From: an uncultured delta proteobacterium
GTDB lineage: Bacteria; Desulfobacterota; Binatia; UBA9968
Assembly (NCBI GenBank): GCA_963804165.1
Contig: CAWDPO010000001.1
Location: 96,001 to 160,000, forward strand
Length of the DNA stretch: 64,000 bases
Reading direction: 5' to 3'
The first letter of the stretch is position 1; every line of letters starts with the position of its first letter. The position numbers and the translations under genes were made by a program. Below are positions 34,944 through 59,073 of this stretch, piece after piece. The notes beneath the pieces were generated by a model. It had not been told where the DNA came from. It searched no databases and saw only the letters and a program-made list of their open reading frames with translations.

Positions 34944-37579
34944 GCGCACCTCCCTCCATCACTAGTCTGACTGCTCCCCGTTCAGGCAACTCTCGATTGT
35001 TTTCGACGCGAATGATTTCGTCGTGCGCGACGTGTAGACCAATTCGTCGAAGAGTCGCTTGGGAAACCAGCCACGACGACGGATGTAAATCTCTTCAACT
35101 GCGCGAACGCCTGGAACAGCTTGAATCGCAGCTTCCAGGCGTGCTCGTTCCAACGGAGTCGCCGAACGTCCAGTTGTCTGGAGAAAAGAAACCAGGACGT
35201 GGTCTAACACCACGTTGACCGAACAACGCTTCAAGCACAGCTTCCTTCACATCGCCAATGTACGAAGTCGGAGCAACGCAGATATGAATCTCCAGATCCA
35301 GATTCGCGAACTTGGGATTCAGTCCATAAGTCTCGCGTCCCGCAAGTCTGTAGCGATTGAGTTGACGTTCGAGGTCGATGCGTTGTTCTTCTGTTAACGT
35401 GAAGCTGCCTTTTGGATCTGGAGTCGCGAAGAGCGTGAGCCAACTTCCAGTCCAACGGAACTGCGCGCCAGCACGTTGTACCCATCTGAGTTTCTCGACG
35501 GCAGCTGCGTAGTCTTCGGCGCGCACCGCGCGAAACGTCTCAGCGCGAAACGCGTCTGGTGCGACATGTCGAACGTCAGCAAAGGATTCGGGATCTACCG
35601 CATTCGCAAGACCAAACTGGAGATCATCAGCCGCAAATTCATTGTCAGTAATGCCGAGTGGATTTGTGACCGCGATAACGAAGGTGAGCGGCGCCGCGGG
35701 ATCGAATTCAGTGAGCGAGTTTGCGCCGACGTTGTCACCTCGACCTCTGCCAAGTCGATAAACAGTGCGAAACTGCATCCCTCGTGTTGGTTGTTCTCCA
35801 AACAGATCGTTACCAAACTGAACACTCGCACCACGGCCGTTGGCATAATCGAAATGCACAAACTCCTGGACCGTATCGGTTTCATCGACACGGCGATAAG
35901 AAGAAACACGTCGCCACGAACCATCGTCGATCGTGAAGTGTTTGTCGGTAGGCAGAGAGGAACTAACACCCAACATCGCTCGTTTCCACTCCCACTCGCT
36001 GTCGGTCACCCAGTTCCCGAGCACACGTGTTCCATCCATAACCCGCACTTCAGGAGACGCATGTTCAAGCGTAGGACCGTGCGACACCACATCACGTTCT
36101 TCCGATCCGGGAAGCGTGAAAAGTAGAGCGGAACGTTCAACTGCGAACGCAGAAAAGTTCTCGTTGTACAAAGTGTTCGTGGTTGGCAAGTGTGCCGGCT
36201 GCAAAGGCGGCAGCAATGCGGCCTGCGGATTTGGTTCGATCTCGAAAAAGGCTTCGAGCGTTTCTCCCGCCGTTGCCGGAACGATGTTGCCGCGAACGAC
36301 TAGTGTTGGCAGCTCCATTTCGAACGGCAGCGCGTATGCAGGATCCCATTCCAGTCGTGTGAGGTTCGTGCCGGTGAGTGGATCCACCAACGTCGCGCCG
36401 GCATCGTCGACTTTGATCAAACGAACCAACCAGGTTCGTACCGGCACACTTGCATCGACTGGATTGGTTTTTAGTATTACCCATTTCCCACGAACTTGCG
36501 GATTGGTGAAATCATCGAGCGGAAGATCGTTTTGGTGATGACCTGTGACATGTAAAAAAGTAGAGCCGACTAACAGGCAGGTATCGTTTTCATCCCACTG
36601 ATACGCCGTAAGTTCGTTTGCGGCATTGCGTAGCTCAAAATCCGACGTTGGATAGAGGTTGCTCTGCGAAGGCAACACGCCGAGCGGCGGCGTTAGTCCC
36701 TTGTGACCTTGAACAATTCCATGTCCTACTTCATACACTGATGGACTTCGGTGACGTCGATCTGCAAGCGTCTCTCCCGGTACAGCAGCTGGCGGCGGTA
36801 CCCATACTGGCGTGCCTGCAGAGACAATGTGCACAGCCGCCGAAGCATCAACCGTGAAATCAAGCCACGTCGCAGCACCCTTGCCGTCGTGGACGTGGTA
36901 ATCAAGCAATCGCGCCTGACGACGAATCGATCGGCGCTGTGTTGCGGATTCAAAATAGCGCTTCGCGCGAAATGCGATCCTGGTAATAGGCAAACTCGTC
37001 GCCGACAGCGCTCATTAACTCGGTGAGCATCATGCCGACATCAGCTTCAAGCCGATCTTTCCATTGCGGATGCCAGTCCGAAGCGAAATCCAGCAGCGCC
37101 TGCCGAATACTCCAGAAGTCGCGGGCCAGATAGTTCACCGGGTAGTCGATCAACGTATCTTCAGGACACTCGTGAGGCCGCGCTTCACAATCAAGCTCGC
37201 TCGGACAATTCGCCTTGAAACTGAACCCGACTCTACTGAAATACGGATCGACCAATGGACTGGTGAGCTGAAATTCATAACGTGAGAAGTCGCCGGGCTG
37301 TGAGGTAATCACGCGTAAAACTCGCCTGCCAAAACGTGTGACCCACGTCGGAGGAAAATTCGGATTGAGCGGCACAACCGGCAATGACTCCCCGCCACTT
37401 GGACTGATAATCTTGATCTGAGAAGGCTGGACCACACCAAGGATCTGTTCAGCATTCAACGTCGCGTTCGGATGAAATAACACAAACAACGTCGTCTGGT
37501 TTTCGCGGACAAAGATAAAGTCGATGCCCACGATGTCGTCGCGCCCGCGAAGATTCTCGATGCGATCGATTGCAGCCAT
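34940..37579 (-). CDS. Baseplate J-like protein 1 (Afp11-like), 2-3 frameshifts
   Basis: NYLARDFWSIRQALLD, EADVGMML, YYQDRI, SATQRRSIRRQARLLDY, QFGNDLFGEQP, RAVRAEDY, FRWTGSW, FFSPDNWTFG. Confidence 0.85.
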
Positions 37580-40227: not shown

Positions 40228-41004
40228 CTATGTCGGCAGCATTCCGATTATCGATTCGACACTGTTTGCGAGATTGGCAGTTGCTAATGCTTCTTTTTGT
40301 GCTTGCGTGAATTTGTAACAGAGCTTCGCGAAGTCAACGATCAGCGACTGTCCAGGATCACCGGCCACATTCACGAGGTGGTTCTCATTGAGCACCGTTA
40401 GGCCAAGTGATACCTTCGCTCGTATCGGATAGAGCAATGGTGAATACTGCTGTTCTTCAACTGAGAAGCTCGTGATGCGGACAGGAACGATGCGACCAGG
40501 CCCCCAGAAGAAAAGCACGACCGGTACTTGCAGCTTCGGCACGACATCAGCCGCAGTTCCGAGACCACCGATGCTGACGCCGCCCGTAAGCGAAACACTT
40601 ACAGATACGTTGAGCAATCCGGCTAGCGCACTTGGTCCAGGCGGATAACAAAGCATCTCCATCGCTGAGATACGATCAGCAACACCGGCGATGGTCGCGA
40701 TCGGATGCGTACTCGGCTCTTCCAAAGCGTCGGCGGCATCCAATTCGAGAGTAAGACTGAATGTTTCCTGCGGATCGAATGGCTGGGCCAACTCGTTAAG
40801 AAACTCCGCTGCAGCTTTGTCTGCCGCTTCCTTGCTCTCGTAAGTGATCTTTTCCTTCGGCTTCCACGGGACAACCTGGCGCGTCATCGTTTCAGGGTTG
40901 TACTGAAAGATGATGATGTTCGGGATGGGCACCAGCATCGGCGCTGAGAATTGAATCAGCGCGCCTTTGAGAAGTTTTGGACTTCTTGTGAATCCGTTCG
41001 CCAT
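40228..41004 (-). CDS. CIS tube-initiator protein (Afp7/Pvc7 N-terminal-like)
   Basis: FQYNPETMTR, LFFWGPGRIVPVRITSFSVEE, PIRAKVSLGL. Confidence 0.85.
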   Translation of the reverse strand: MANGFTRSPKLLKGALIQFSAPMLVPIPNIIIFQYNPETMTRQVVPWKPKEKITYESKEAADKAAAEFLNELAQPFDPQETFSLTLELDAADALEEPSTHPIATIAGVADRISAMEMLCYPPGPSALAGLLNVSVSVSLTGGVSIGGLGTAADVVPKLQVPVVLFFWGPGRIVPVRITSFSVEEQQYSPLLYPIRAKVSLGLTVLNENHLVNVAGDPGQSLIVDFAKLCYKFTQAQKEALATANLANSVESIIGMLPT

Positions 41005-41007
41005 GAA

Positions 41008-44000
41008 TTAGACCTTTTCGAAGTTCCAACCAAGTTCCAGCATGCCCGTGCGGTTATGTTCTTTAGCCTTCGCCGGGACCTTGTCGAGCAGTTCCTTGAA
41101 GTCGGCTTCATCTTTCGTAATCACATCCGGCTTCGTTTCGTCTGCAAGTTTGTATTGCGTTGTCTTTGCTATCTCTTTGTAGAACTCAAGTTCGAGCGTA
41201 GGCATCCGAGCTTTGAGCGCATCACTCATGCGGCGCTCAACCTCTTTGTAAGTTTTCTGCGCAGCTTGATAGGTCTCACTTGCGACGGTGTCGTCGCCGT
41301 GCTGCTTCCGATAATCTTTGAATGATTGTTCAGTCGAGACGAGCTCGGGAGGTACGTGTCGCTCGAATTCGTTATTCACCGCACCTGCCTGCGACGAACC
41401 TGAGGTGCCGCCAACGTCATCAGCCTCCGGCGTGATGTGCAAGCGTCCACTGCGGTGCGTCGATGCCGCGAGCGAAATTGTCGGCATCATCTTCCCACGA
41501 GTGGATGACGGGCCTTTGGTTTCGCCAACGAGGATTGCTTCCTTTTTGTCAGTCGCGTTCGGTTTTTCACTAATGTACTTAACCTCGTTGCCTTCCCACG
41601 TCAGCCCTGGATGGTTCCAGCTCTTCTTAAACGGCCGATGTGAGTTTGTAGGGGCAGATGAGAAGTAGTCGGCTATCAGATATTGTGTGAGGTGATGCGA
41701 CTCACGTCCCGGGCTCTTTTGGCTGTCGTCGTGTCCGTATTGGGCTAAGCGAAGTCCAACGTTCGGCTTCACGTCCTTGTTTGTCTCGGCGTAAATCTTC
41801 CAATGAGGCAGATCCTTTGGATCAAGTGTCGAGCCAGTGAGGGCATTCTTTACAAGCTCATCGACCTCTTTCTTGAAGAGGTAACTGAACATAAAGTCTT
41901 TCCCGAACAGAGCCCAGATGCCAACGACGATCCCTTTCTTCTCAAACAGCGCGCGGGTATGGATGCGAATCTTGGTGAGCTTGTCGTCATCCGCCCCGGG
42001 CCAAGCGTTCTTGACTGAGTCGATCCAAAGTGGCGAGCGACCGTCAATGTAGGGAAGGTAAATATTCAGGATCTTTATTTCTTTGAGCGGTTTTGTCTCA
42101 TCGATGATCTCGACTTCCGTGCTGTCTGGGGCCGTTACCTTGGTGTGATTGAAGGAAAGGGAAAGCACAACACCTGTTTTTGCGATGATGTAGCCTTCGA
42201 GTGACCTCGCAAAGTGAGTTGGCTTGATGACCTGTTCGACGGCAGGAGTAGATTTCGCTTTCGTTCCCTTTGCCGGTTTCGGCACTGGAAGATCCATCAG
42301 CGATTCGAGCCCAATCTGAGAGGCAGCGATTCGAATAGGATCAGCGTAGATGTTGTTGTTGAGACGGCTGTGTATCAGCTTGACTGCCGCCGTAAAAACG
42401 TCGGGATATTTAAGGATTGTGGTGTGCGATTGTAGGTTGGTGAGAACTTCAACCGTCTTGTCTACCGTGTTTGCTTCGCGTGTTTTTAGTTTCGCTTTCT
42501 TCTTCGTATCGAGGAGTTCTTGCCGACGTTTAATGTCGGGCAGATCCGTAATCGTGTGTAAGAGTTTATGGATAGTGAATAAGTTAATTCCTGAAGGTTG
42601 GAGACCTCCGTCCTCCTCGTTACCAACATCGGGTTGGGTGGCCAGCCGTCCTCCTGACTCAGCGATCTGATCCGCTATTCGTTCGCTAGCAGGATCGTAT
42701 TTCAGTCCCATTTCTGGTTGGCCGGAAATAGGAGCAGTGTCGTTTGCCCTGCGACGCTTACCGGTTTGTTGCAGCACGTGGACCAACTCGTGCTGAAACA
42801 CTTTCGCGCCACGACCGCTATAAACCGAAAGGCCGGGTCGCATGAAGACATGACTGCCCGTGGTTAGAGCATCGGCGCCAAATGTGTCTGTCATTGCAGC
42901 CGACTCAGATCCCGTGTGGAGTCGAACGTGTTTTAACGAACGACGAAACACAGATTCCGCACGTTGTAGTACTTCAGGAGTGAGTGGCTGACCTGGGCCA
43001 TGCGAAGGAACATGTCTCGGTCGGAAGCGCAGAGGTCGATCTCAGTGAGGGGTAGGGATTCGTGGTAGCCGCTGCGACGGGAACATCTTCAACGTAGTCT
43101 TCGTGCGTTTCCGGGAAGGGATCGCCTTCAGGAGTGATTGCGAGCTTGTTTGCTTTTGGGATCGGCTTGAACACCCCTCCGAGAGCCTTAGCTCCGAGCA
43201 AATCGTTTATCTTCTTTACGACGTCATCGCGCGTCTCATTGAACTTAGTGGCAATCTCAGGAACGACCTGTTCTTGCCAGTAGATGTTTGGATCCACTCC
43301 TGCCGCTACGATCTCCTCTGCAACACGCTCGTTGAAGAAGTCGAGTGCGCCTGTCTTTTGCAGAATAAACAGAGCGGCCTTACCTTTGAGTCCCAGGTTC
43401 TTCAAGATAAAGCCTTCAAGAACACTCATAGCGCTCGCAATTATCGGTGGAAAATCGAGAATCTTTTCTGGCAGCTGGAATTCTTCGACTTGCCTCAGGA
43501 TGTCGTGGAAACGATCACCAAAGCTCTCCTGCTGCTCCTTCAGTGTGTCCTTCAGTTCTTGAGCAACACCCTTTTTTCTGTCTTCCTTTGTGCCGATCTC
43601 GTAGATGGTTGTCGCGATCTTGGCTATGGTGAATATGTTGTCGGCAATAAACTGGAGTGCAAACGAGAGGACCGGCCGCGATGCTGCGAAAGTGTGAAAG
43701 TCCTCCATCGGTACCTGGACTTTGTCGTGAAGTTTTCGCAGGGCTTTAGCGAACGCCTTACCCAAACGACGAAACGCGGCTACTGCTTTTTTCGCTTTTG
43801 CGAACTTGTCTGTACCGCCTGAACTCGGTTTCGGATCGGCAGTTTCACCCTTTCCTATCGTACTTTTGGCGAGCAGCGAGTCGAGACGCGGGTCACCAAA
43901 TAGCAGCAGTTGTATGAGGTTCTCCGGATCCGCGGCGTCTTTTATTCGCGTTAACAGGCCTTCCATGATCTCGCGAATTCCACCCGCAAGAATCTCCTTG

Positions 44001-47000
44001 ACCTTCTTCCAATCACCGTCTGCCCAAAACATAGCGATCGTCGCGAGGACACGCGCTGCGGCGATTCCCTGGCCCACACCGGGAATAAACTCCGCCAGAT
44101 CAAGCATCGTGTTGACGTACCACTCGATGCCGGCTTGTATGTTTCCCATTGCGCTGCCAAAAGCAGCCCACGCAAGTCCGTTGTGTATGTCAGCGAGGAT
44201 CTCCGCATCTGCTGGGCCAACTTGCTTGGCTTCAAGGAGCACGTTTTTCTTGTTAAAGACTCGAACTTCCAGAAGTTTCTCGTCTTTCGCCAGAACGAGA
44301 GGTGTCTTATCGTCAAGCTCGAGGAATTTAGCCTCGGCGTACCCAGTTGCCGCAGTCTTCGTCTTCTTTTTCTTCGATCCTTTTCCCTCCGGCGCCTGGC
44401 CAGCGGTGCCATAGCCGTAAGCTGGATGGTAGATGTAGTCGCGGAGGATCTTTGTGACCTCGTAGTGAACGCTCTTTGGCTCACCGAGTATTGATTGACC
44501 TTCGCGTGGGTAAAGCTTTTGGCCCACTGGAATCCCACTGCTGTAGGCCATGAACACTTTGAATCCCTGATCCTTCGCAAAGGCTTTGTACCCAGACTTC
44601 TTTTGTACACTCTCGCGAACAGCCTTGAAGTGACTGGTGACCGCCTTTAAAGAAGCAACTCGAGGATCGAGCCACTCACTCTTGTTTTCATAGTCAGGCA
44701 AGAAAACATGACGGGCCTTTGGGTCCATTGCCAGGAACGTCGGCAGGTACTTCACGGCTGATTCCATCCATCCGAGCCATGAATGCACGACATCGAACCG
44801 GCTCTCATTTTCGAACGCCGCTTCGAGCTTTGGCGCGATCTCCAGCATCAACGCAGTCATCTCGGCTTCGACGTCCTGCTCTTCCAACATCGACACTGCC
44901 ACAAAGAAGCGAACAACCTGCTCCAACGCCTTATTCGGCTCGTCGAAGGCTCGCGTATCGTCGTATTTTATGAGGTGTTCGATACTCCACTTGGCAATAA
45001 TCTGACGATCAAGACGTGAGCCTTTCTTGATCTGAAGGAGTAACTGCTCCCATGCCCGCTCGCGCTCGCCCTCCAGAGCAGACGTGATGCCGGCTTGAAG
45101 AGTTCGAAGTTCGTCCTTCGTCATCTTCTCGTCTTTGAGCTGCTTGGTTATGCGTTCGCTCAGTTTCTTGAGCCACGTGGGGTCGTCTAATTGTTTTGTT
45201 TGCTCGAGCTTCTTTTGGTCGTCTTTGCCTGGCATGCCGGCAGCAACTTGGGCGTTGAGGAGATCGATCCCGCGAAACGTGGGCATCACGGTCCAGATGT
45301 AGGGGACGAACCACGCAAAGACCTTTCCAGGTTCAAATGGCAGTATCCATGTCAAGCTGGCGGTCTTGCTGTGTTCGTCAACCTCGTGGAAGGAATAGTG
45401 GGACTTAATGAGATCATCAAACGATTCTTTGCTTCCCTCCTTGATCGCAAAGTCATACGACTTAACTGTCCAAAACTCTGGAAATGGCAGTTTCTTAACT
45501 TCTTTATCAGCTTTGCCGGCGACGAAAGGTATTAATCCGCCAGCCTCAACCCACAGCTTCTCTTCCGCATCGCTTGTTGGCGTTAACTCTTTGATTTTCC
45601 CGGCGACCGCCTCGTAGTAGGATTTGCGATACAGAAGCGCCAGGTGTGTTCCAGTTAACGGTTCCCACGACTTGATGGATTGCACTTGCGAAAGGTCTTC
45701 AATTGGCACTTCTGGCTTGTGATGCCAGAAGTTGCCATCCTCATATGGCAGTATCGCAAGAAGGCTCGTTTTCTCTTTCTTGGCGAAGATTATTGTGTCT
45801 GCTTCTTCAACAACCTCGGTCCAATCAAGCGCTCTCCCAAGCCATTTCGCTCGACGTGCAAAAATTAGCCGTTGATGTATACGCTGATCGACTAGCGCGA
45901 CGTTGGGATTAGTGTCCGGGCCTGCCGCGACCCAGGCAAGGAAGCTCATCCACTCACGCACCCAGATCGTCAACCAGATATAAGCGATTACGTCGTCTGT
46001 TTTTTGCTCATAGAGAAGTTTCGGTTGCGGTTTCTCGAGGTGCTCCTGAGAAAAACTCTTCAGTCGCTCTACTAAAGCTTCAGCTCGAGCACGAAACTCA
46101 TCCGTAGGGGCGGGGCTTTCTTTTCCTTTACCGGGCCGGTTCAACTCGCGTAAGACATGAATTATCTCGGCGGGAAACCCGCTCTTTTCACCGGCTGCCT
46201 TTACTGCTTTTAACTTCTTGGTGGCTTCGGCGAGAGCTTTTGCTTCACCCTTGTCTCGACTTTCGTGGAATTGAGTGAACGTCTGATCAAGCGCGCTCTG
46301 TCGATCCCAAAGATCAATCGCAGTGGTGCCAATTCCTTTGACACGCGCTCCCAGTTTCTTTAAGAGTGGCTCCCACGCTTTTCTTGCATCGGTGTCAATT
46401 GCGCCAGTGGTGTCTTTAAAAATGTCCGCAGTTGATTCAAGAAACTTGGAGCCCCACTGCTGAACCCCATCAGCGTAGCGACGCTTCAAAAAGATCTGTC
46501 GCTCATTGGTTTTTTTCTGCTCCGCGATCGCATTGTTATTTATCTCAATGCATTTCTTCATACGGAGCTCATCAAGTTCTCGTATTCTGAACAGCGCCTC
46601 GTAAACCCATTCGGAGCTTGACAGTTTTTTGTTTTCACCCAAGTTATCTGACAACTCGGAGGCGTGCTCGGTAATGGTATCGGTGCTGGTGTCTCCCTCT
46701 TTCAAACCGTAACGACGAAGTGTCGGAATGGGCGCGCTTAGTGGGCCAAGAATGAAGACACCAATCAGTCGAACCCATTCTTCGATGTACCACGCAAGCA
46801 CCGGATGTTTTTCAGCAGCCTTAACGAATACCTCCTCACCTTTATTTCGATCCTTGAGAACCGGAACAAAACTATTGGTCCACGCAGCCGTACGGATGCG
46901 AATGCCGCCTTTAAAGTCGTCGCGTTCGATAAGCTGCGATGCGAGTTCGAATTTTTCGTAGCGTTTTAGTGTGTCGAAGAGGAGACTCTCCGCTTCAGAG

Positions 47001-47713
47001 GGCCAATCCTTGATTTCTGGAAGTGATTCCTGGAAAAACGTATCTAGCGATGCCTTCGGATCGGTCATCGCAACTCGTTTAGCCAACGCCTTAACGACTT
47101 CGTCATACTTATCCTTTTGATCTTTCTTCTTCGGAGCGTGTAGTTTCTTCAAAGTGTCAAACGGAGGAATCGCAGCTTCCAATTGCACGAGTCGATTGCC
47201 ACGTTGCGGCGTTGCTTTCATCATGCCGTCTGTCGACAGGCGTCCAGTCTGTTGCAACACGTGTGTTAGCTCGTGGGCGATCAGCAGTTTCCCTTCACGA
47301 CTCTGAGGCTTGAACTTTCCTCTCGCGAAGTAAACATCTCGGCCGCTGGCGAAAGCGTTGGCGCAATGCTCTTGGGCCGCATGAGCCGCATCAGAATCTT
47401 CGTGAATCCGAACGGCGGCGAAATTTGCACCGAACGATTCTTCGAGTTCCTCTCGCAAATCTTTATAGAGCGGAAGGCCAGCGCTCGCAGGTAACGAAAA
47501 ATCCGCTGCTCCAGTGGGTGTTATTCGTCGCGCCAGTCCTTTCTCACCAGCAACGAAGCGTTCGGCAATATCGTCGGCCTGACGTTCGAGACCGTCTGCG
47601 CGCTTCCGATTCGCTGCTCCGGCTAGCCCCGGTTTCGCCTTCATTTGCACACGACCATGGCCCAGCTGCTTGGGCGAAGACCGAGTTGCTGTTTTGAATT
47701 CCGTCGTGTTCAT
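41008..47713 (-). CDS. Giant eCIS protein: DUF4157 - helical body - PT-TG-like - DUF4157 - SHH nuclease-like domain (ORFs 42974-47713 and 41008-42951 joined by one frameshift near 43040)
   Basis: AVRIHED...AFASGRDVYF...AHELTHVLQQ; DLAEFIPGVG; GPGQPLTPEVLQRAESVFRRSLKHVRLHTG...QHELVHVLQQ; RESHH...PTISLAASTH. Confidence 0.8.
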
Positions 47714-47721
47714 CGAATGAG

Positions 47722-47952
47722 TTAATTCACCCTGCGTCGAATGTGCGCTGTCACGTCACTTGCTAACCGATCGATTGAGCTAGTGGTCGATCGAAACTTG
47801 ATCGAGATTTCGTTAATGGACTTAGTACCGTTCGTCTCGCTCGAAGCTTCACTCAAGCGCTTCGCTACGAGTTCACCCAACCGGCGACCTTGCTCGCACG
47901 TCAGACCAGAAGCGCAGATTCGAAACTCCCGAATGTGAACCTTGCCTCTCAC
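47722..47952 (-). CDS. Small eCIS-associated hypothetical protein
   Basis: Overlaps the ATPase stop (GTGA); VHIREFRI...GRRLGELVAKRL. Confidence 0.7.
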   Translation of the reverse strand: MRGKVHIREFRICASGLTCEQGRRLGELVAKRLSEASSETNGTKSINEISIKFRSTTSSIDRLASDVTAHIRRRVN

Positions 47953-50156
47953 GCAGCAGCCTCTTCTAATCGCAGAATCTTGTCGCGTTCGCGTGGTCCA
48001 ATCGCTCGTCCTTCTTTCGCGAGCTCCCGATCAAGCCCGATGAGCAAATGACCAGCATTTAGTGATTTGCGCTCAGCTCGTGCCGCGAACAAGGCTGCCA
48101 GCACGGCAAACTTGATTTGCGCGCCCGTGACGTCGGTCGCGGTGCTGAGAAGTTCAATGGCCTCGGCCAACGACTTCGCCCGTTTTTCGTCCACCAACCC
48201 CGTAATGAGTTTTGTCCACAGTTTGCGTTGCAGTGCTGCGTCAGGTGGCGTGAGCTCCACGTGGTAACGAATGCGCCGCAGAAACGCTGAGTCGATGTTG
48301 GATTTGAGGTTGGTGGCGAGTACCGCGATTCCGGGATAACTCTCGATCGCCTGCAACAGAAATGCGGTGTCCGTATTCGCGAAGCGATCCTGAGCATCGC
48401 GGATCTCAGCCGATCTTCGCGCAAACAGCGCATCCGCTTCATCGAAGAAAAGCACAGCGTCGTTCTCAGCGGCCACGCGAATCACTTGTTCGGTGTTCTT
48501 TGCCGTCTCACCTACCCACTTGCTGACTAACTGCGCGACGTTAACGCGACACAAATCCTTCGTCAGTTGGGCGGCGATCACCTGCGACGCCATCGTCTTG
48601 CCAGTGCCTGATGGTCCACTAAATAGCGCCACTAAACCACGGCCTTGCGGAAACAATCGTTGTGCTTCCTCGTGCTGCCAAAACGAAACACGTTCTTCTG
48701 CTTCGAACGCGATTGCCTGGAGCACCCTCTTTACTCCGTCAGGCAATACCAGGTCGTCCCAGGTAAACGGACATTCGAGAATCTGTGCGAGATTTCCAAA
48801 CCGCAATCTCGCACTCTCGCGCACGCGCGCCGCGGCTTCATCAGGGGTCTGCGCGCCAAGATGGATCGCGCGCTTAATGTCTCCCGGCCAAACGCTGTGG
48901 TGTTCGGCAAGTTTGCGAACTTGTTCGGCCGGCCATTTCGCCGCCTTAGGTGACGACTCCCGCCACAAACGTTCGCGCGTGCTTGCTTTCGGAATCGAAA
49001 GACGCACAACCTTGTCGACTATGCCACTTGTCTCGGTCGGTTCAGACCCGGGTTCGCACAAGACAAACTGAAGGGGAAACATCGATTGATTGGCAGGCCA
49101 CAGTTGCCGTGTTGCTGCATCACCTTTCCAGCCGAGGACCGTCGCATCAAGAAAAGCCTGTCGTTGCGCGTGCAGAAACATTCGCTTCCAATTCGACTCG
49201 TCGGTTGAATCCAACTGGACCACGAGCAGTGGCATTCCTAACTCAGCCGAAACAGCCGCAGCAAACTGTCGTTTTCCGCCGCCGCTCGGAGCGACGACAA
49301 CGACACGCATGCGAATACGTGCTTCGCTGGCAAGCGACTGCTTGATCCAGTTCAGAACTTCTTCAAAAGGCCACTCGGGCAACGTCGCGTTTTGCGATTC
49401 ACCGATCGCAGCTACGCCGATCAGTAACTCATCGAGACTACTGCTGCCTTCCAACCACTCCTTGATGTGCGGATCGCAAACGAGGGCTAACGGTTCACCG
49501 ACGCCCGTATCGCGCCGTTGAATCAATTCCCAGCGAAACACATTCATTTCTGGTGACCAGTTCACTTCACCGTTCAGTCGTAGCAGTCGCGCGGCGAGAT
49601 CTTCCGTCAGATACGTCCTGCCTGAGTGGTCCTGCAGATATGCGCACACACGACTTAGTGAACTGTCCATAGCGACGGCTGCTGCAAGCTTCAGCAAGTC
49701 GAGTTCTGCCGGAGACAAACCAAGCACGCGGGCAATGCGCGCGAAGCGAGAGTTCTCCAATTCATCTAACTCGCGTTTGATTGCGTCTGCTTCCGACAGC
49801 CAATGACGAACGGGTTCCTGACTCTGCGCCCACTCCGTTTCAGCTTCGAGCGAATCCTGATTAGCAAGAATGGCGGCGAGCTCAGCGTGAGTGACCGTTG
49901 CGCGACCATCGATCGATCCGTCGTTAATCCAGAGATGTTGCAACCACGCTCCCCGACAACGCGCAAGCAAGCGGAACCACGCAAGCAACAATTCGCGTTC
50001 TCTCGCCGACGATTCGACCGGCGCAGTTTGATATTCGATTGGCTGCGACCCCGGTTTGCGCCTTCGCTTCGTTGACGCGCGCGTCGCTTTCGTCCCTTTC
50101 GCCCCTTTCTGGCGCGACGATGCTTTTCTCTTTTTTACTGCTCGTTTAGCCATCAT
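47949..50156 (-). CDS. eCIS AAA+ ATPase (Afp15/Pvc15-like)
   Basis: TWDDLVLP, FSGPSGTGKT, VSKWVGETAKN, LFFDEADALF, DRFAN, AFLRR; degenerate first AAA (APSGGGKR). Confidence 0.93.
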   Translation of the reverse strand: MMAKRAVKKRKASSRQKGAKGTKATRASTKRRRKPGSQPIEYQTAPVESSARERELLLAWFRLLARCRGAWLQHLWINDGSIDGRATVTHAELAAILANQDSLEAETEWAQSQEPVRHWLSEADAIKRELDELENSRFARIARVLGLSPAELDLLKLAAAVAMDSSLSRVCAYLQDHSGRTYLTEDLAARLLRLNGEVNWSPEMNVFRWELIQRRDTGVGEPLALVCDPHIKEWLEGSSSLDELLIGVAAIGESQNATLPEWPFEEVLNWIKQSLASEARIRMRVVVVAPSGGGKRQFAAAVSAELGMPLLVVQLDSTDESNWKRMFLHAQRQAFLDATVLGWKGDAATRQLWPANQSMFPLQFVLCEPGSEPTETSGIVDKVVRLSIPKASTRERLWRESSPKAAKWPAEQVRKLAEHHSVWPGDIKRAIHLGAQTPDEAAARVRESARLRFGNLAQILECPFTWDDLVLPDGVKRVLQAIAFEAEERVSFWQHEEAQRLFPQGRGLVALFSGPSGTGKTMASQVIAAQLTKDLCRVNVAQLVSKWVGETAKNTEQVIRVAAENDAVLFFDEADALFARRSAEIRDAQDRFANTDTAFLLQAIESYPGIAVLATNLKSNIDSAFLRRIRYHVELTPPDAALQRKLWTKLITGLVDEKRAKSLAEAIELLSTATDVTGAQIKFAVLAALFAARAERKSLNAGHLLIGLDRELAKEGRAIGPRERDKILRLEEAAA

Positions 50157-51469
50157 GGCACTTGCACCCAGCGCGGCGAGTTCTCAGCGCCGTTCACAAT
50201 CACGCGCAACGGCAACGTCGATCCGCTGTTCAGGCCGACAATCGGAAACTGAATTCGAATTTGCGTCGCGCTCGTAATTTCGAAATGGCCCGCCGTTAAG
50301 GCGAGTGTCGGTTCGATAGGCACAGGCTCGCCACCAACGATCACGCGAACGTTCTCTGGTCGAACGTCAGCGTGTTGGAACACAGCACCGTCCACCGTCA
50401 CGATGTTGCCGACTGCTGTCGCAACAGTGTTGTAGGGAGGATTTGTAATCTGTGGCGCTACAACGAAGGGGACTTCGTTAGAAGCCTGCGGGAATGCGCG
50501 CATGCTACCGTCAGGCATTTGGCGAACCTGAGTGACGCGCGCGGCGGCAGTATAGAAGCCTGGAGCAATGTCTTCTGCGCCTGCGCGCTGATTGACCTGC
50601 GCCAGAATGAAATCGGTTCCTGCAACTACACCCCAGTCAAGACCAACCTCTTGCGGCGTATTCCAATCAGGTCTTTTGATTAGGAGTGTTGTCGAGTCGC
50701 CTGCGAGATCGGTGCCCTCGAATGCAATGTTTTCACCGATCGCTGCTTCGCCTGGTCTAACATCCACAGTTCGATCAGCAACTTCACCTGGTATGCGAAA
50801 AGTAACTGTGGCGCGGCTGGTATCTAGACGAGGCGCGCCATTAACAAAAATCTGGATACCGTAGCGAAGCACGCGTCCGCTAAGTAACTGGGGACGATCA
50901 GGTTCGAGGAGCGTTGCTGTGACTTCGTAATAGGCGGCGAGTCGAACAGCCTGTGTGCCAGCTGTCCAAAAGTTAGAAGCTTCGTTAGGAGCAATGTTTC
51001 GCTTAGAGATGCGAAAGACATTGTCTGTGTCTTGCAGTTCGGTAGGAAAGATCAAACCGCCGAACGACGTGTTTCGATCGAGACTGGGAAAATCGTGCAA
51101 CGTCTTCAGCGCGAGACCGAACAGCCGTTGCGCTCGAAGCGCGGCAGCATGAGGGTTGTTCATTAGCTCGGCAGCAAGGACGAACAGCTGATACTGAAGA
51201 ATGACACCCATGGGCGTGAAGCGAACCGGCGGCTGATCTCTGTACACAGGCGGAAGGTTTTTAACGTGCGGATCTTCGTGTGCGTAGTAGAGAAACATTC
51301 CCAGCGCCTGGTCCGCAGTAAAGGTTGTAGACGGCGAAACCCCGGTGTAGGTAATCGCCGGCGCCGGGTTTGGCGCGAAGAATGCGGCCCAAAGAGGATC
51401 GACCCGCACCCGTAAGAGGTTCAGGAGTGTCGTCGTCACCAGTGATAAGTCGATTAACGGCATTGTCAA
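50153..51469 (-). CDS. Pvc16/Afp16 (DUF4255) cap protein with C-terminal Ig/IPT-like extension
   Basis: LSLVTTTLLNLL, LGMFLYYAHEDPHVKN, LFGLALKTLHDFP, NFWTA...RLAAYYEVT; beta-rich C-terminus ending LRVIVNGAEN. Confidence 0.85.
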   Translation of the reverse strand: MTMPLIDLSLVTTTLLNLLRVRVDPLWAAFFAPNPAPAITYTGVSPSTTFTADQALGMFLYYAHEDPHVKNLPPVYRDQPPVRFTPMGVILQYQLFVLAAELMNNPHAAALRAQRLFGLALKTLHDFPSLDRNTSFGGLIFPTELQDTDNVFRISKRNIAPNEASNFWTAGTQAVRLAAYYEVTATLLEPDRPQLLSGRVLRYGIQIFVNGAPRLDTSRATVTFRIPGEVADRTVDVRPGEAAIGENIAFEGTDLAGDSTTLLIKRPDWNTPQEVGLDWGVVAGTDFILAQVNQRAGAEDIAPGFYTAAARVTQVRQMPDGSMRAFPQASNEVPFVVAPQITNPPYNTVATAVGNIVTVDGAVFQHADVRPENVRVIVGGEPVPIEPTLALTAGHFEITSATQIRIQFPIVGLNSGSTLPLRVIVNGAENSPRWVQVP

Positions 51470-52329
51470 AAGCGACTGAATCCGAAGCGGTGGGCCGACG
51501 GAACTCCAGCGCGTGTTCTTCTGCCACCGCCGATCACGACGACTTGACGTTGCGGCGTAACCACTGGTGTTGGCGCCGGCACGATTTCAACAGACAGTTT
51601 TCCGATCACTAGCGACGGTGCTTCGTCGGTGGGTTCAGAAACTCGCGCCTGCGGAGTTGGAGGTTGCAACCGCGTGGCAGTTTGAATCGGCCTTTCTGAT
51701 TTAGTCGCATGCTGTTGACTATGGTCTTCCTCACTTTCCGCTTGTTCGCGCTTGCTCGAGCGACGTTCAAACAAGCTGGCGATGAACGAATCAGCCTTTC
51801 GCAGGAGGACTGCTTGCTCGCTCTCGATGTTCACTAAACGGTCGGTCATTTCGTCATCGTGCGATGACTGCGACACTTCTGTTTCCTTTGAGGGAGTAGT
51901 TGGAACAAGACGCGGAGACGTGTGCGCTTCTGGTGATATCTGCTGCGGTTCGACGTGCGTAACCTTGCGAGTCTCGAAAAGGTCGCGCGGTGGAAGCTCA
52001 GATTCCTTGGTAGCTCGAGTTATCGGTTGCTCTGGTTCAGTCGAAGGTGGCGCAACGATGGTCGAGCTCTTGGGAGTTGGTGTGACAGTCGACTCGGTCT
52101 GAGGTCTTAGCTCGGTAGTTTTTGACGACGATTCTGAAACAGCGTTGCGTTCAGCCGGTAGTCGATCAGACGACGGGCTAGTGGGCCAGACAGTGGAATG
52201 ATGCGTCGTGTCGGGCGAGGTGACAGTCGCCTCGAATGGATCGTGAGCCCTGCGAGCGTTGACGGATTTGGGTGCCGGTGCGTTTGCGAGTGTGGCGCGA
52301 GCGGCCAATTTTGCGAAATAGCTTTTCAT
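51466..52329 (-). CDS. Low-complexity eCIS-associated protein
   Basis: MKSYFAKLAARA start, S/T/P/E-rich middle, LVIGKLSVEIV C-terminal motif; translationally coupled to Pvc16. Confidence 0.75.
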   Translation of the reverse strand: MKSYFAKLAARATLANAPAPKSVNARRAHDPFEATVTSPDTTHHSTVWPTSPSSDRLPAERNAVSESSSKTTELRPQTESTVTPTPKSSTIVAPPSTEPEQPITRATKESELPPRDLFETRKVTHVEPQQISPEAHTSPRLVPTTPSKETEVSQSSHDDEMTDRLVNIESEQAVLLRKADSFIASLFERRSSKREQAESEEDHSQQHATKSERPIQTATRLQPPTPQARVSEPTDEAPSLVIGKLSVEIVPAPTPVVTPQRQVVVIGGGRRTRAGVPSAHRFGFSRF

Positions 52330-52344
52330 CAGAAAAGATGCGCA

Positions 52345-53148
52345 TTACGCGACGTATTCGTTTTCAATGAGTTCAACCAGGTGTCGTCGATCACTGCGTG
52401 TCAGCGAAAGAATTTCATCGAGGGACCATGAGTAAGCTGCGGCGATACAGTTAATATCGCCCAGTAGACGACGGCGTTCAGCGACGAGTGCTCCTAACAA
52501 GTAGGTTTGAATATCGAACTGGACCTTGTGAACGTGATTACACTCCGGACAGCGCGCTAACAATTCGAGATCGATTAGCGGCGCAACAAGTTCAAGCAGT
52601 TCCTCAAAGGCCACGGCACCTTCGGGCCACCCACGATCTTCGGTGCAGCGATTCAGCAGCAGTGATTCGACTTCCTGCGGCGTTGCGCCGATTGCAGCTA
52701 ACTCGTCTCCTCCCGTCGGTAGACGAAAGCTGACACCATTCGCCGCTCTAAAACTTCCGTCGTCCAACTGCACACACTCGACTGTTTCGTCCGCATTGCT
52801 GATCGAAGAGATCGCGCTCTGCAGTGAGAAATCGATATCGAAAGGTTGCTCGCATTTTGCACAGGTAAGTGTGCTCTCGATGCGATCACCGAACGCAGTT
52901 CTGTAAACGGCAGCAAGCAGTCGATCGCGATCCGCAGCAACCAGATCTGCAGCGCGCAGCTTGTCTGTTCCGGTGGCCGGGTCTGGTTCCAGGAGCGAAG
53001 CCAGCAGCGCGATTGCGTTGGCGGTACTGGTCCCCATGACCGCGTATTCGTCTCGACCCGTAAGTTCTCGCAGCTGCGCGGTCCGTCGGGTCCCGGCGAA
53101 ACGTAATGAAATGCTCTCGGCCATCATGGACGCATACCTGGTCCGCAA
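52345..53148 (-). CDS. T4 gp26-like / tail assembly chaperone-like eCIS protein
   Basis: LRELTGRDE, DRDRLL, CAKC and CPEC, FRLPTGGD, YSWSLDEILSL. Confidence 0.8.
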   Translation of the reverse strand: MRTRYASMMAESISLRFAGTRRTAQLRELTGRDEYAVMGTSTANAIALLASLLEPDPATGTDKLRAADLVAADRDRLLAAVYRTAFGDRIESTLTCAKCEQPFDIDFSLQSAISSISNADETVECVQLDDGSFRAANGVSFRLPTGGDELAAIGATPQEVESLLLNRCTEDRGWPEGAVAFEELLELVAPLIDLELLARCPECNHVHKVQFDIQTYLLGALVAERRRLLGDINCIAAAYSWSLDEILSLTRSDRRHLVELIENEYVA

Positions 53149-56080: not shown

Positions 56081-56869
56081 CTAAAGTTTCGCCAAAATTT
56101 CGTCGACCCGATTTCGGTCGATTATCTCTAGCTGACTCTTGAGGCTTTCCGCTTCCGCTCTAGCACTATCTAACGCTAACTCCTTCTCAGCTAGAGTTTC
56201 TCTCGCTGAATTTAGTGAATTGAAAGCTTTGGTTATCTCCGCAACTAATGTCCTGTAGGGCTTTAGCTGCGTTTTACCAAGTAGAACTTTCAACTCCTCG
56301 TTTAAAAAAAACTTATTTCTATGATTTTGTTCTTTTTCGATCCGTTGCTTTTGATTTCTAAGTTCAACAAAGGACTTTTCTATTTCTTGTTGATAGTTCG
56401 GCACCGCCTGGTAATCCTTCTCTGCTCGGTCAAAGAGTTTTTTGGCAGCCTCGCATTCCTGGTTTGCCTTATCTTCCTTGATCTTCGCCACCTCGTAGTC
56501 CCTTGCTTTACCGTCCCGATACTCATCATATCGTGTCTTTAATTTTTCGATGGCCGCAGTTTTATTCTTCAAAACAGAAAGCGAGTTCTTTCTCTGTTTG
56601 CTATACTCTTGTTCAAATGTTTTCCGTTCACGGTCCAGAATCATCAATGTAGTACGATAGCGTTCCAAAGCAGACTTACTCTCCGCGGCCGTTTTCTCCA
56701 TCTGAGTTGCCGTATTTTTCATTCGATCTATTCTCTTATTCTCTACAACTCTTCGGCTTTCCAAGTTTTGAATCTGCGAACGCATCTGACCGAGTTTAGT
56801 TGTGAATATTCCCGACGTAGTTAGTTTTTCCCTCGTCTTTTTGTGCTTTGCCATTTTACGCTTTGCCAT
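56081..56869 (-). CDS. K/E-rich coiled-coil protein, AT-richer than neighbours
   Basis: 262-aa heptad-rich ORF between the promoter-proximal gene and the sheath gene. Confidence 0.75.
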   Translation of the reverse strand: MAKRKMAKHKKTREKLTTSGIFTTKLGQMRSQIQNLESRRVVENKRIDRMKNTATQMEKTAAESKSALERYRTTLMILDRERKTFEQEYSKQRKNSLSVLKNKTAAIEKLKTRYDEYRDGKARDYEVAKIKEDKANQECEAAKKLFDRAEKDYQAVPNYQQEIEKSFVELRNQKQRIEKEQNHRNKFFLNEELKVLLGKTQLKPYRTLVAEITKAFNSLNSARETLAEKELALDSARAEAESLKSQLEIIDRNRVDEILAKL

Positions 56870-57487: not shown

Positions 57488-58870
57488 TCAGCCTTTGAAA
57501 GCCGCGCGATCCAAGCAATATTTTCGCACGAGTCTCTGCAAAGTGCGGCGGTCTTTTCCCGCCGCCTTAGCCGCGAGGGTGATATTTCCCTGATGACGGG
57601 CGAGCAAGTCCGCCACGTACGCGCACTCGAACTCCCCGACGATGTAGGACTTGGCGCGACGGAGCGATTCATGGCGCAGTGTTTCTTTGGACTGCCCGTC
57701 GGAAAGCTCAATGTCAACCGCATGCAAGATTCCCGTTCCGTTCAGAACCGCCGCTCTTTGAATGACCGCTTGCAGCTCGCGAACGTTTCCGGGCCAACGA
57801 TAGTCGAGTAGCTTTTGCCGCGCCGCCTCGGAAAGAACCGGTCGTTGGCAGCCCTGCGGGTTGCTGTAAAGTTCCAAAAAGTGATCGGCAAGAAACAGCG
57901 TATCAGCGCCGCGCTCTCTCAACGGCGGCAAGGACAGCGACAGGACGTTTAAACGGTAATAAAGGTCCTCGCGAAAATGCTTCAGCTGAACCTTCTCCTT
58001 AAGATCGCAGTTGGCGGCAGCGATCACGCGTACGTCGCCAATGAGGGCGCGCGACGAGCCGAGCGGACGGTATTCACCGTTCTGCAAGAAGCGCAAAAGT
58101 TTGACCTGAGCCGACGGGCTCAACGCGTCTACCTCGTCGAGAAAAAGAGTTCCCCCTTCGGCCTCAGCGATCAGACCTTGCTCTGCAGACGAAGCGTCTG
58201 TAAAGGCCCCTTTATTGTGTCCGAACAGCTCATTCTCAAACAGATGATCCGGCAAAGCGCCACAGTTGACCGGAATGAATGGCTTTGACCGTCGTACTCC
58301 TTGGTAATGGATCGCCCGCGCAACCAGTTCTTTGCCGCTGCCGGTCTCACCCGAAACTAATACCGTGGCGTCGGTGCGCGCCAAAGCGGCAGTCTTGTTG
58401 ATCACGGCTAGAAACGCCGGGCTTTGACCGACCAGCGGCAGGTTTGCCGAAATTTCTTTGAACGGCCGACTACGGAGCTCCACTTTGGCTTGGCGGCGCA
58501 AAAGCAGCCGCTCGCTACGCAAGATCAGTTCCCGTTCGATGGCTGAGCAAAACAGAAACTCATCCGCCGCCGAAAGTACAGGTTGCAGCTGAGTGCTAAC
58601 CTGGTCAGAGGGGTAACATAGGATTGCCATGATCGCCGCTTCGCTCCAGCGCGCGCGGCAGCGCTCGACCATTTGTTTGCCGTCCGAATCCTTTGTTATT
58701 CGAAGAAATACAATCTCAGGCTCCAACGAGAGTGCCGTCAAAGGAACGCTGGCGGGAAATTCAGTCGGATCGCCGAAGGATTTCGCCTGCGCAATTAACG
58801 CTCGTAATGAATCGCAGCGCTTTTCGCTACACGGCGACGTGTGCTGATTGAGAAACAGGGCCTTGGTCAT
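57488..58870 (-). CDS. Sigma54-dependent activator with degenerate receiver-like N-terminus
   Basis: [52 protein letters not shown]; ORF extends to 58897. Confidence 0.92.
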   Translation of the reverse strand: MTKALFLNQHTSPCSEKRCDSLRALIAQAKSFGDPTEFPASVPLTALSLEPEIVFLRITKDSDGKQMVERCRARWSEAAIMAILCYPSDQVSTQLQPVLSAADEFLFCSAIERELILRSERLLLRRQAKVELRSRPFKEISANLPLVGQSPAFLAVINKTAALARTDATVLVSGETGSGKELVARAIHYQGVRRSKPFIPVNCGALPDHLFENELFGHNKGAFTDASSAEQGLIAEAEGGTLFLDEVDALSPSAQVKLLRFLQNGEYRPLGSSRALIGDVRVIAAANCDLKEKVQLKHFREDLYYRLNVLSLSLPPLRERGADTLFLADHFLELYSNPQGCQRPVLSEAARQKLLDYRWPGNVRELQAVIQRAAVLNGTGILHAVDIELSDGQSKETLRHESLRRAKSYIVGEFECAYVADLLARHQGNITLAAKAAGKDRRTLQRLVRKYCLDRAAFKG

Positions 58871-59073
58871 CGCTGAGTCTCGACCTCTCGGAATCAAGTT
58901 CCTTGTGGCAACCTACCACGAACAATTCGAACAATTCCGAACAAACGTTTTAAAAGGCCGTGCAATCCCTACAAACACGACAAGCGGTTTCACGACTCCG
59001 ATCGGTGAAACGCCAGGCGGTCAGTTTGAATGCAAAAACAAAGACCGAGCTTAAATTATTTGACTGCAAAAAA

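Follow-up and report, generated by a model that had tools for sequence, protein, structure and literature searches.

A giant gene with two DUF4157 domains in the extracellular contractile injection system cluster of an uncultured Binatia bacterium, called as two open reading frames

The window analysed here, a stretch of 64,000 nucleotides of contig CAWDPO010000001.1 from an uncultured member of the Binatia, contains a gene cluster for an extracellular contractile injection system (eCIS). Two neighbouring open reading frames (ORFs) on its minus strand, ORF1 (1579 aa) and ORF2 (647 aa), almost certainly constitute one gene, which encodes a ~2,230-aa protein of a conserved family with two DUF4157 domains. 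The explanation favoured overall, with a probability of roughly 0.8, is that of a single gene of this family which is split most likely by an assembly error, occupies the slot of the Streptomyces protein Tme, and encodes a product proposed to be loaded into the injection tube and released from it. For annotation, both called ORFs are to be read as a single gene (Table 1).

The evidence for one gene comes from the junction between the two frames. The ORF2 frame is open from position 43041, right after the TGA at 43044-43042, and ahead of the called GTG start it reads DRPLRFRPRHVPSHGPGQPLTPEVLQRAES, while no start codon (ATG, GTG or TTG) for ORF2 is present between 43041 and this GTG. The last codon of the ORF1 frame in common with the homologues encodes leucine (43045-43043), and the first such codon of the ORF2 frame encodes aspartate (43041-43039). 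The homologue-matching codons thus switch frame from the leucine to the aspartate, which gives an offset of one base between the two frames at 43045-43039. The homologues continue uninterrupted at this position as ...PS[LP]DRPL..., in the fuller form ...NPYPS[LP]-DRPL-R.RP...GPGQPL..., exactly as the ORF2 frame does. None of 14 homologues found with the C-terminal 580 residues of ORF1 has a counterpart to the 22 residues with which ORF1 ends after ...NPYPSL, in agreement with the first-pass annotation, which had described this tail as not protein-like and had proposed that one indel joins the ORFs. A tblastn search with three homologues places the frame change at 43043-43056. The agreement of the junction with the homologues far exceeds chance expectation.

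The overlapping frame also completes the second DUF4157 domain. In ORF2 alone, the Pfam profile PF13699 matches residues 2-65 but covers only profile positions 14-78 (56.3 bits). A six-frame search of the genome recovers profile positions 1-78 within a single 677-aa open frame extending across the called GTG (69.2 bits), and the 80-aa piece starting at 43041 provides positions 1-52. Two earlier claims, that this frame supplies the missing start of the domain and that the HELVH region belongs to DUF4157, are therefore confirmed.

All 14 homologues, which are 24-83% identical to the query, carry both PF13699 and PF15522 (Ntox14). Thirteen of them are single proteins of 2,184-2,281 aa, as the first-pass annotation had predicted for the window, and the family is not consistently encoded by two genes; the fourteenth homologue (1,791 aa) begins inside the body and is N-terminally cut. 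In genomes sampled one per species, 17 uninterrupted full-length ORFs are found in 16 loci, two further loci carry a split elsewhere, and three are truncated where the contig ends. The carriers belong to the Acidobacteriota, Gamma-, Beta- and Alphaproteobacteria, Myxococcota, Chloroflexota, Verrucomicrobiota and Bacteroidota. A query restricted to the body (ORF1 residues 380-1579) and scored against 1.84 billion representatives retrieved 198 of them at E≤1e-3. Among the best 150 of these 198, 107 have at least 2,000 aa (median 2,206), and 104 of these 107 show the order DUF4157, body, DUF4157, Ntox14-type domain; the shorter representatives begin or end inside a domain. Short ORF2-like database proteins (n=13; 509-1,113 aa) include none that is demonstrably a complete gene: seven have the body end upstream, and most others either come from contigs of 1.7-2.5 kb or begin within a domain, with completeness not assessable for P0020 and P0028. 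The fused form is thus the norm, and the offset of the window is common to none of the homologues examined.

Three unusual loci were observed beside these. The complete genome of a Polaromonas species encodes a 915-aa annotated protein (P0024) that extends from within the body to within the Ntox14-type domain; in this finished genome, it may be a copy of the family that decayed naturally. Between its ATPase and Afp7-like genes, Aliikangiella coralliicola carries two full-length family members in tandem (L009:5240-19155), with 2,262 and 2,353 aa stop-to-stop. A Desulfobulbaceae metagenome-assembled genome encodes a 3,346-aa ORF (L071:9329-19366) with two DUF4157 domains (residues ~262-344 and ~1673-1757) that matches neither the body nor the tip of the family; a plan with two domains is therefore not confined to this family.

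An arrangement in which two products are intended, encoded either by two genes or by programmed +1 recoding at CUG-A-GAU, which would give a 1,557-aa ruler-like protein in addition to the full fusion, is highly improbable. The break is located exactly within the linker between the two modules, and an AGA codon follows the leucine codon in the ORF1 frame, which is reminiscent of hungry-codon +1 sites. The offset is, however, absent from all homologues, as all 17 intact genomic ORFs and 104 of the 107 long representatives are continuous, and both other split loci break elsewhere. As a separate gene, ORF2 would lack a start codon before its DUF4157, and 13 profile positions would be missing; in addition, no slippery pattern is evident, and the same operon contains six other breaks.

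The offset is instead very probably an indel error of the assembly rather than a real mutation. In the same assembly, valS (C42:78231-80539) is spread over three frames with at least four switches, and alaS (C13:105942-108503) over two frames with two switches, while rpoB, rpoC, dnaE, uvrA and secA are whole and gyrA was not found. A candidate ileS on contig C42, suggested by TIGR00392 matches, proved to be valS. Because the organism cannot live with valS and alaS both broken, the assembly must carry indel errors, and the split in the window is probably not biological. Over the ~23 kb of housekeeping genes examined, the frame-break rate is ~0.26 per kb, and a single offset in a 6.7-kb gene is therefore explainable. 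The assembly comprises 46 contigs and 7.5 Mb with a completeness of 81%, which fits the broken marker genes. A metagenome contig (L083) that is 78% identical and collinear over 15.9 kb also speaks for an artefact: it has every gene whole where the window contains unpaired one-base offsets within genes, at ~43043 and ~36959. Other 'split genes' of this assembly need caution, as indel errors seem to be present.

Several observations would rather fit a real mutation, by which the effector gene and the eCIS operon would be decaying and would leave the 1,579-aa and perhaps the 647-aa product. Neither of the two offsets located by comparison with L083 is in a homopolymer run. In comparison with relatives, the baseplate J-like gene is broken at ~36957-36962; in comparison with more distant loci, the gene after it contains ~3 frame changes (34900-33100) and the second gene after it 2-3 (32010-30800). 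The called ORFs of 209+632, 371+182+166 and 219+168+118 aa between 30600 and 37640 are thus pieces of genes for ~820, ~800 and at least 555 aa. The interval 30.6-47.7 kb therefore contains at least seven frame breaks in the effector gene, the baseplate J-like gene and the following two, of which the six or more in baseplate genes would also fit a decaying locus, while the genes for sheath, tube, cap, ATPase, hub and spike are unbroken, like the five intact housekeeping genes. The 915-aa Polaromonas fragment, the only family member in that complete genome, indicates that natural decay does occur. Only one sequencing run matched (0.06 share of words), and its contigs covered no more than 42316-42499 and 47562-47598; since they miss the junction, the run speaks neither way. 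A real mutation is nevertheless improbable. Apart from the broken valS and alaS, the background rate of breaks and the incompleteness of the assembly, no premature in-frame stop is seen beyond those caused by the offsets, and both halves are 78-83% identical to intact relatives over their full length. An assembly error remains the preferred explanation; the split itself is then most likely an ordinary artefact, and it is the family that stays of interest.

Alignment and profiles give a common layout for the family, consisting of ~80 N-terminal residues, the first DUF4157 domain, a body of ~1,400 residues, a proline-rich linker, the second DUF4157 domain, a middle domain of ~280 residues, an Ntox14-type domain of ~170 residues and a helical tail of ~125 residues. 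Both DUF4157 domains reported from the sequence alone match PF13699, and both contain an HExxH motif (HELTH and HELVH). The first domain scores 91.8 bits (cut-off 22) over profile positions 1-77, i.e. the full profile, and its residues H147, E148 and H151 are invariant. Among 116 long proteins, all 114 two-domain members keep HExxH in both domains, with a median spacing of 1,481.5 residues between the motifs (range 1,368-1,712; coefficient of variation (CV) 4.3%), and the total length is similarly constant across the family (CV 3.5%; median 2,206-2,216 aa). The genome-wide six-frame search finds only these two DUF4157 matches, and the giant gene is thus the sole DUF4157 gene of the genome. The N-terminal domain is of the common type, while the internal domain is a family-specific variant, because proteins outside the family score far better with the N-terminal-type profile.

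Table 1. Features of the giant gene and of its neighbours in the window.
Feature	Position	Strand	Evidence and remarks
ORF1 as called, 1579 aa, ATG start	42974..47713	-	ORF list; the first 1557 residues belong to the giant protein, the last 22 are out of frame
ORF2 as called, 647 aa, GTG start	41008..42951	-	ORF list; represents the C-terminal third of the giant product
~80 N-terminal residues preceding DUF4157	47474..47713	-	Sequence; proposed loading region by analogy with AlgoCIS cargo
DUF4157/eCIS_core domain 1, residues 81-157	47243..47473	-	Pfam PF13699; HELTH at 47261-47275
Body, residues ~160-1538, family-specific	43102..47236	-	Family profiles, AlphaFold2 model
Pro-rich low-confidence linker with conserved P-S-x-D-R-P-L, spans frame break	42988..43101	-	Alignment; pLDDT ~30 at model end
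One-base frame offset	43039..43045	-	Between ORF1-frame Leu codon and ORF2-frame Asp codon
DUF4157/eCIS_core domain 2, starts upstream of called GTG	42757..42987	-	Pfam, six-frame search; HELVH at 42778-42792
Middle domain, ORF2 residues ~70-385, family-specific	41797..42744	-	Family profiles, AlphaFold2 model; no Pfam match
Ntox14 toxin-type domain, ORF2 residues 404-507	41431..41742	-	Pfam PF15522
C-terminal helical tail, ORF2 residues 521-647	41011..41391	-	Family profiles, AlphaFold2 model
Afp7-like tube/hub gene, directly downstream of giant gene	40228..41004	-	3-base gap
AAA+ ATPase (Afp15/Pvc15-like), directly upstream of giant gene	47949..50156	-	
287-aa ORF	51466-52329	- (cluster strand)	No tape-measure family match
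T4_baseplate-like 267-aa protein	52348-53148	-	
Coiled-coil-type 262-aa ORF, upstream of sheath gene	56081-56869	-	Weak matches only
Sigma-54 activator, upstream of sheath gene	57488-58897	-	Sigma54_activat, 215 bits

The toxin-like tip that had been predicted corresponds to Ntox14, which is found near the C-terminus with 52.5 bits (cut-off 25) but covers only positions 112-216 of the 218-position profile; homologues match from position 25-65 onward. Its invariant residues are R-x-S-H-H-x-x-Q, R-G, P, H and H. The label 'polymorphic' does not hold. Strictly defined, polymorphic toxins combine a constant N-terminal part with variable tips and an adjacent immunity gene, and the latter two are not seen here: the tip is the same in 104 of the 107 long members, and no immunity-sized ORF follows the giant gene, with no room for one before the Afp7-like gene in the window or in five relatives (gaps of 3-50 bases).

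The body, the middle domain and the tail are covered by no family of Pfam, PHROGs or NCBIfam, and a Pfam search with the tail alone gives chance-level rows only. Across distant relatives, the best-conserved core of the body corresponds to ORF1 residues ~1165-1510 and contains three moderately hydrophobic helices. On the Kyte-Doolittle scale, 83 of the 116 family members contain at least one segment that reaches 1.6, the usual membrane threshold, most often at residues ~1,150-1,420; the protein of the window contains none.

AlphaFold2 models were built with family alignments. The C-terminal 647 residues are modelled with a pLDDT of 87.6 and are poor only after the second DUF4157 domain (residues 105-133) and in one loop. 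In the body model, which comprises residues 380-1579, the first ~820 residues are predicted with a pLDDT of ~90 and are mostly helical with β-rich parts; the next ~340 residues, which contain the best-conserved core, are helical with lower confidence (55-68), and the last 40 residues are unstructured. The ~1,300-aa helical body of the first-pass annotation is thus only partially supported: the model contains 61% helix and 5% strand, but the ~820 confident residues with their β-rich parts are not modelled as one plain extended helix.

Fold searches with these models retrieved no known relative. The ORF2 model has no match in the PDB at E≤1e-3, and the body model finds only generic helical repeats there (E≥0.007, TM≤0.11) and no match in BFVD at E≤1e-3. 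Sequence-profile searches of the PDB returned unrelated proteins for the whole family (E 0.023 and 0.82) and no match for the Ntox14 region, and a search of the ESM Atlas with ORF2 residues 135-647 gave a best score of 0.78, which is in the noise range. Three candidates were discarded: the VgrG2b effector domain as a match of the ORF2 model, a weak row with E 7.3 that is no evidence; tape measure proteins among the BFVD rows for the body model (E 0.05-0.3, TM≤0.1), likewise no evidence; and a His-Me finger nuclease fold for Ntox14, suggested by the R-E-S-H-H motif and a strand-strand-helix arrangement in the model, which no search result supports. Complex prediction with the N-terminal 170 residues and the T4_baseplate-like 267-aa protein scored 0.24, against a mark of 0.32. 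In a plasmid collection, tblastn with ORF1 found 39 records, none of which covers 80% of the query; the 10 rows listed cover 7-11% of ORF1, corresponding to the DUF4157 part only.

The cluster is encoded on the minus strand and starts with the sigma-54 activator, the 262-aa ORF, the sheath and tube genes, the genes for the T4_baseplate-like 267-aa protein and the 287-aa ORF, and the Pvc16-like cap gene. The AAA+ ATPase gene, the giant gene and the Afp7-like gene follow, and then gpD, gp5-OB, a PAAR-like ORF, gp25 and the baseplate J-like gene, after which further baseplate or fibre genes are found. Of 19 related loci, 16 have the AAA+ gene directly upstream of the giant gene and 17 have the Afp7-like gene directly downstream. 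No scanned protein of the window's locus matches a tape-measure family of Pfam, PHROGs or NCBIfam. This supports the earlier claim that the giant gene, between the AAA+ ATPase and the hub/spike genes, occupies the tape-measure slot without another evident candidate. Two side observations concern the neighbours: the sigma-54 activator may regulate the cluster, and a zinc site is suggested for the T4_baseplate-like 267-aa protein by two CxxC pairs, whose four cysteines are invariant across 14 relatives.

A working model can be proposed for the giant protein, which is probably an effector that is loaded into the lumen and ejected. Its N-terminal region and the first DUF4157 domain would direct it into the tube lumen through the neighbouring AAA+ ATPase, and it would then lie along the lumen, held at the hub, where it may set or co-set the length of the tube. 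Upon contraction, the protein would be expelled, and the internal DUF4157 domain, which is located just after a conserved disordered linker, could cut or otherwise release the C-terminal Ntox14 module, which would then act as a toxin. In the AlgoCIS system, lumen loading requires a disordered N-terminal cargo region and the ATPase Alg15 (preprint 10.64898/2026.05.27.728243). Three points weigh against parts of this model. The same preprint describes the DUF4157 domain of AlgoCIS cargo as dispensable for loading; the literature covered reports protease activity or cleavage for no eCIS DUF4157; and Ntox14 has no PDB match by sequence profile or whole-chain fold. For the internal domain, the second loading or self-processing module put forward by the first-pass annotation stays hypothetical, and a role as a cis-releasing protease is doubtful.

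A function of the giant protein as ruler of tube length is a tentative proposal, with odds slightly short of even. It is favoured because of the slot, the absence of another candidate, the tightly held length, and the equal length of the Tme-type proteins despite a body without detectable homology. The confident prediction of ~820 body residues with β-rich parts argues against a ruler, as does the lack of a tape-measure match in the profile databases and of a significant fold match in PDB or BFVD. In addition, a chain of 2,230 residues would correspond to ~480-510 nm if the published values of 0.216-0.229 nm per residue are used, compared with 121 nm for AlgoCIS; a particle of this size is implausible if the AlgoCIS coefficient is applied to the whole chain.

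The giant protein could also be whole in nature but serve as cargo only, with tube length set otherwise, for example by the 287-aa or the 262-aa gene, and with the second DUF4157 domain as the leftover of an old fusion between a DUF4157 scaffold gene and a DUF4157-toxin gene. This is possible, although on the unlikely side. It would agree with AlgoCIS, in which a separate 526-aa tape measure is present beside the DUF4157 cargo (preprint 10.64898/2026.05.27.728243), with the many eCIS loci that contain arrays of separate DUF4157 genes that could fuse, with the weak coiled-coil-type matches of the 262-aa ORF, and with the same features of the body that count against a ruler. On the other hand, the HExxH motifs kept in both domains (114/114) make neither domain look like a relic, and the narrow length distribution of the family coincides with that of unrelated Streptomyces Tme-type proteins in the same slot. 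Moreover, neither small ORF matches a tape-measure family, and the 262-aa ORF has no blastp match (E≤1e-5) in the 19 related loci.

In its boldest form, the ruler proposal holds that giant DUF4157 proteins are both the tube-length rulers and the only payload of this eCIS lineage, that this family and the Streptomyces Tme type, whose bodies have no detectable homology, both have ~2,200-2,300 residues in the same slot because the particle sets their length, and that the internal DUF4157 domain, as an inbuilt protease or as another unit for docking to the hub, detaches the Ntox14 toxin from the ruler once the system has fired. As a whole, this is speculative and rather unlikely; if true, the protein would constitute a natural 'ruler-linker-protease-toxin' cassette. 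DUF4157 is the most widespread eCIS-specific domain. In this family, two copies with intact HExxH are found at fixed places, one at the entry end and one just before the toxin, so that mutation of either copy alone should distinguish between functions in loading and in release. In addition, the family provides a test for the idea of a 'tape measure turned effector', since the total length is the same as that of the Streptomyces Tme type while the bodies have no detectable homology. Aliikangiella coralliicola, Novosphingobium sediminis and Roseateles aquae are cultured carriers that would permit such work.

Comparison with AlgoCIS reveals a shared cargo plan. Each half of the giant protein repeats the order of the cargo proteins in AlgoCIS, Cgo1 and Cgo2, i.e. 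an N-terminal region, DUF4157 and a variable C-terminal part, and an AAA+ ATPase is encoded adjacent in both systems. In AlgoCIS, however, ruler and cargo are separate proteins: Alg14 (526 aa) sets the length with 0.229 nm per residue, and the cargo proteins (498 and 1,228 aa) have one DUF4157 each (preprint 10.64898/2026.05.27.728243). The window instead encodes one 2,230-aa protein with two DUF4157 domains and no separate ruler is evident.

The connection between DUF4157 and Ntox14 has been described for the PVC-metallopeptidase toxins (Zhang et al. 2012, PMC3482391). In that work, DUF4157 corresponds to PVC-metallopeptidase, which was proposed as an autoproteolytic releasing domain, and Ntox14 is defined as a tip tied to it, listed only as alpha+beta and linked to PVC-metallopeptidase and Imm22; most of these toxin systems have no adjacent immunity gene. 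The link of Ntox14 with the metallopeptidase domain is present in the giant protein. A second peptidase copy is noted in that work only at the extreme C-terminus, as a toxin, whereas the second copy of the giant protein is internal, with ~590 residues after it, and all of the family has a fixed tip. Also documented are linkers that exceed 1,000 aa and connect an N-terminal DUF4157 with C-terminal toxin domains (Geller et al. 2021, PMC8213781). The giant protein shares this arrangement but differs by its internal second DUF4157, for which no mention was found in the parts of that study that were covered. In the DUF4157 and Ntox14 literature covered, no mention of a double-DUF4157 family with Ntox14 was found, although supplementary files may show it.

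The closest counterpart is Tme (BN159_7576), a protein of 2,247 aa in the contractile injection system of Streptomyces davawensis, which has an N-terminal DUF4157 and is encoded by the largest ORF, which immediately precedes the baseplate genes (Nagakubo et al. 2024, PMC11126660). Tme is described as a tape-measure-related effector that is remotely homologous to tape measures, has transmembrane helices as well as an EndA-like nuclease at its C-terminus, and is co-purified with the spike and the tube initiator (PMC11126660). A giant protein with an N-terminal DUF4157 that occupies the tape-measure slot and ends in a toxin is thus an already published idea. The same study defines 'tme-like' genes, which occur across phyla, by length, N-terminal DUF4157 and synteny (PMC11126660), and the gene of the window shows all three features: it is the largest ORF (~2,230 aa), encodes an N-terminal DUF4157 and lies directly upstream of the baseplate/spike genes. 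Remote homology to phage tape measures, in contrast, is not detected for the window protein in PHROGs (0 matches) or BFVD (0 at E≤1e-3).

Tme itself was compared by description, and the sequence comparison was made with six Streptomyces Tme-type proteins, drawn from 201 genomes of the genus. Of the 150 DUF4157 matches listed for these genomes, 30 are in open frames of 2,103-2,460 aa (median 2,284). All six fetched loci (L086-L091) have the order AAA, giant gene, Afp7-like, gpD and gp5, with giants of 2,216-2,329 aa. The Streptomyces giants and the window family share the slot after the AAA+ ATPase and directly upstream of the hub/spike genes, a length of ~2,200-2,300 aa, and homologous cluster genes (AAA 1e-45 to 1e-55, gp5 ~1e-30, Afp7-like 1e-17 to 1e-20); a toxin-type domain near the C-terminus is a feature that the window family shares with Tme. 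They differ in the number of DUF4157 domains, as all six sampled Streptomyces giants have a single DUF4157 with a single HExxH, whereas the window family has a second, internal one. The Streptomyces giants also contain strong hydrophobic segments at ~1,310-1,650, compared with only marginal hydrophobic helices in the window protein, and one of four scanned giants ends in Endonuclea_NS_2, whereas the window family ends with Ntox14 and the tail. None of the six matches the body, middle, Ntox14 or tail profiles of the family at E≤0.01. By sequence comparison, the window family is therefore a positional and length counterpart of Tme with no detectable relationship beyond the N-terminal DUF4157 domain. 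It represents a widespread variant of the Tme-type giant eCIS effector, with a fixed architecture and two intact DUF4157 domains.

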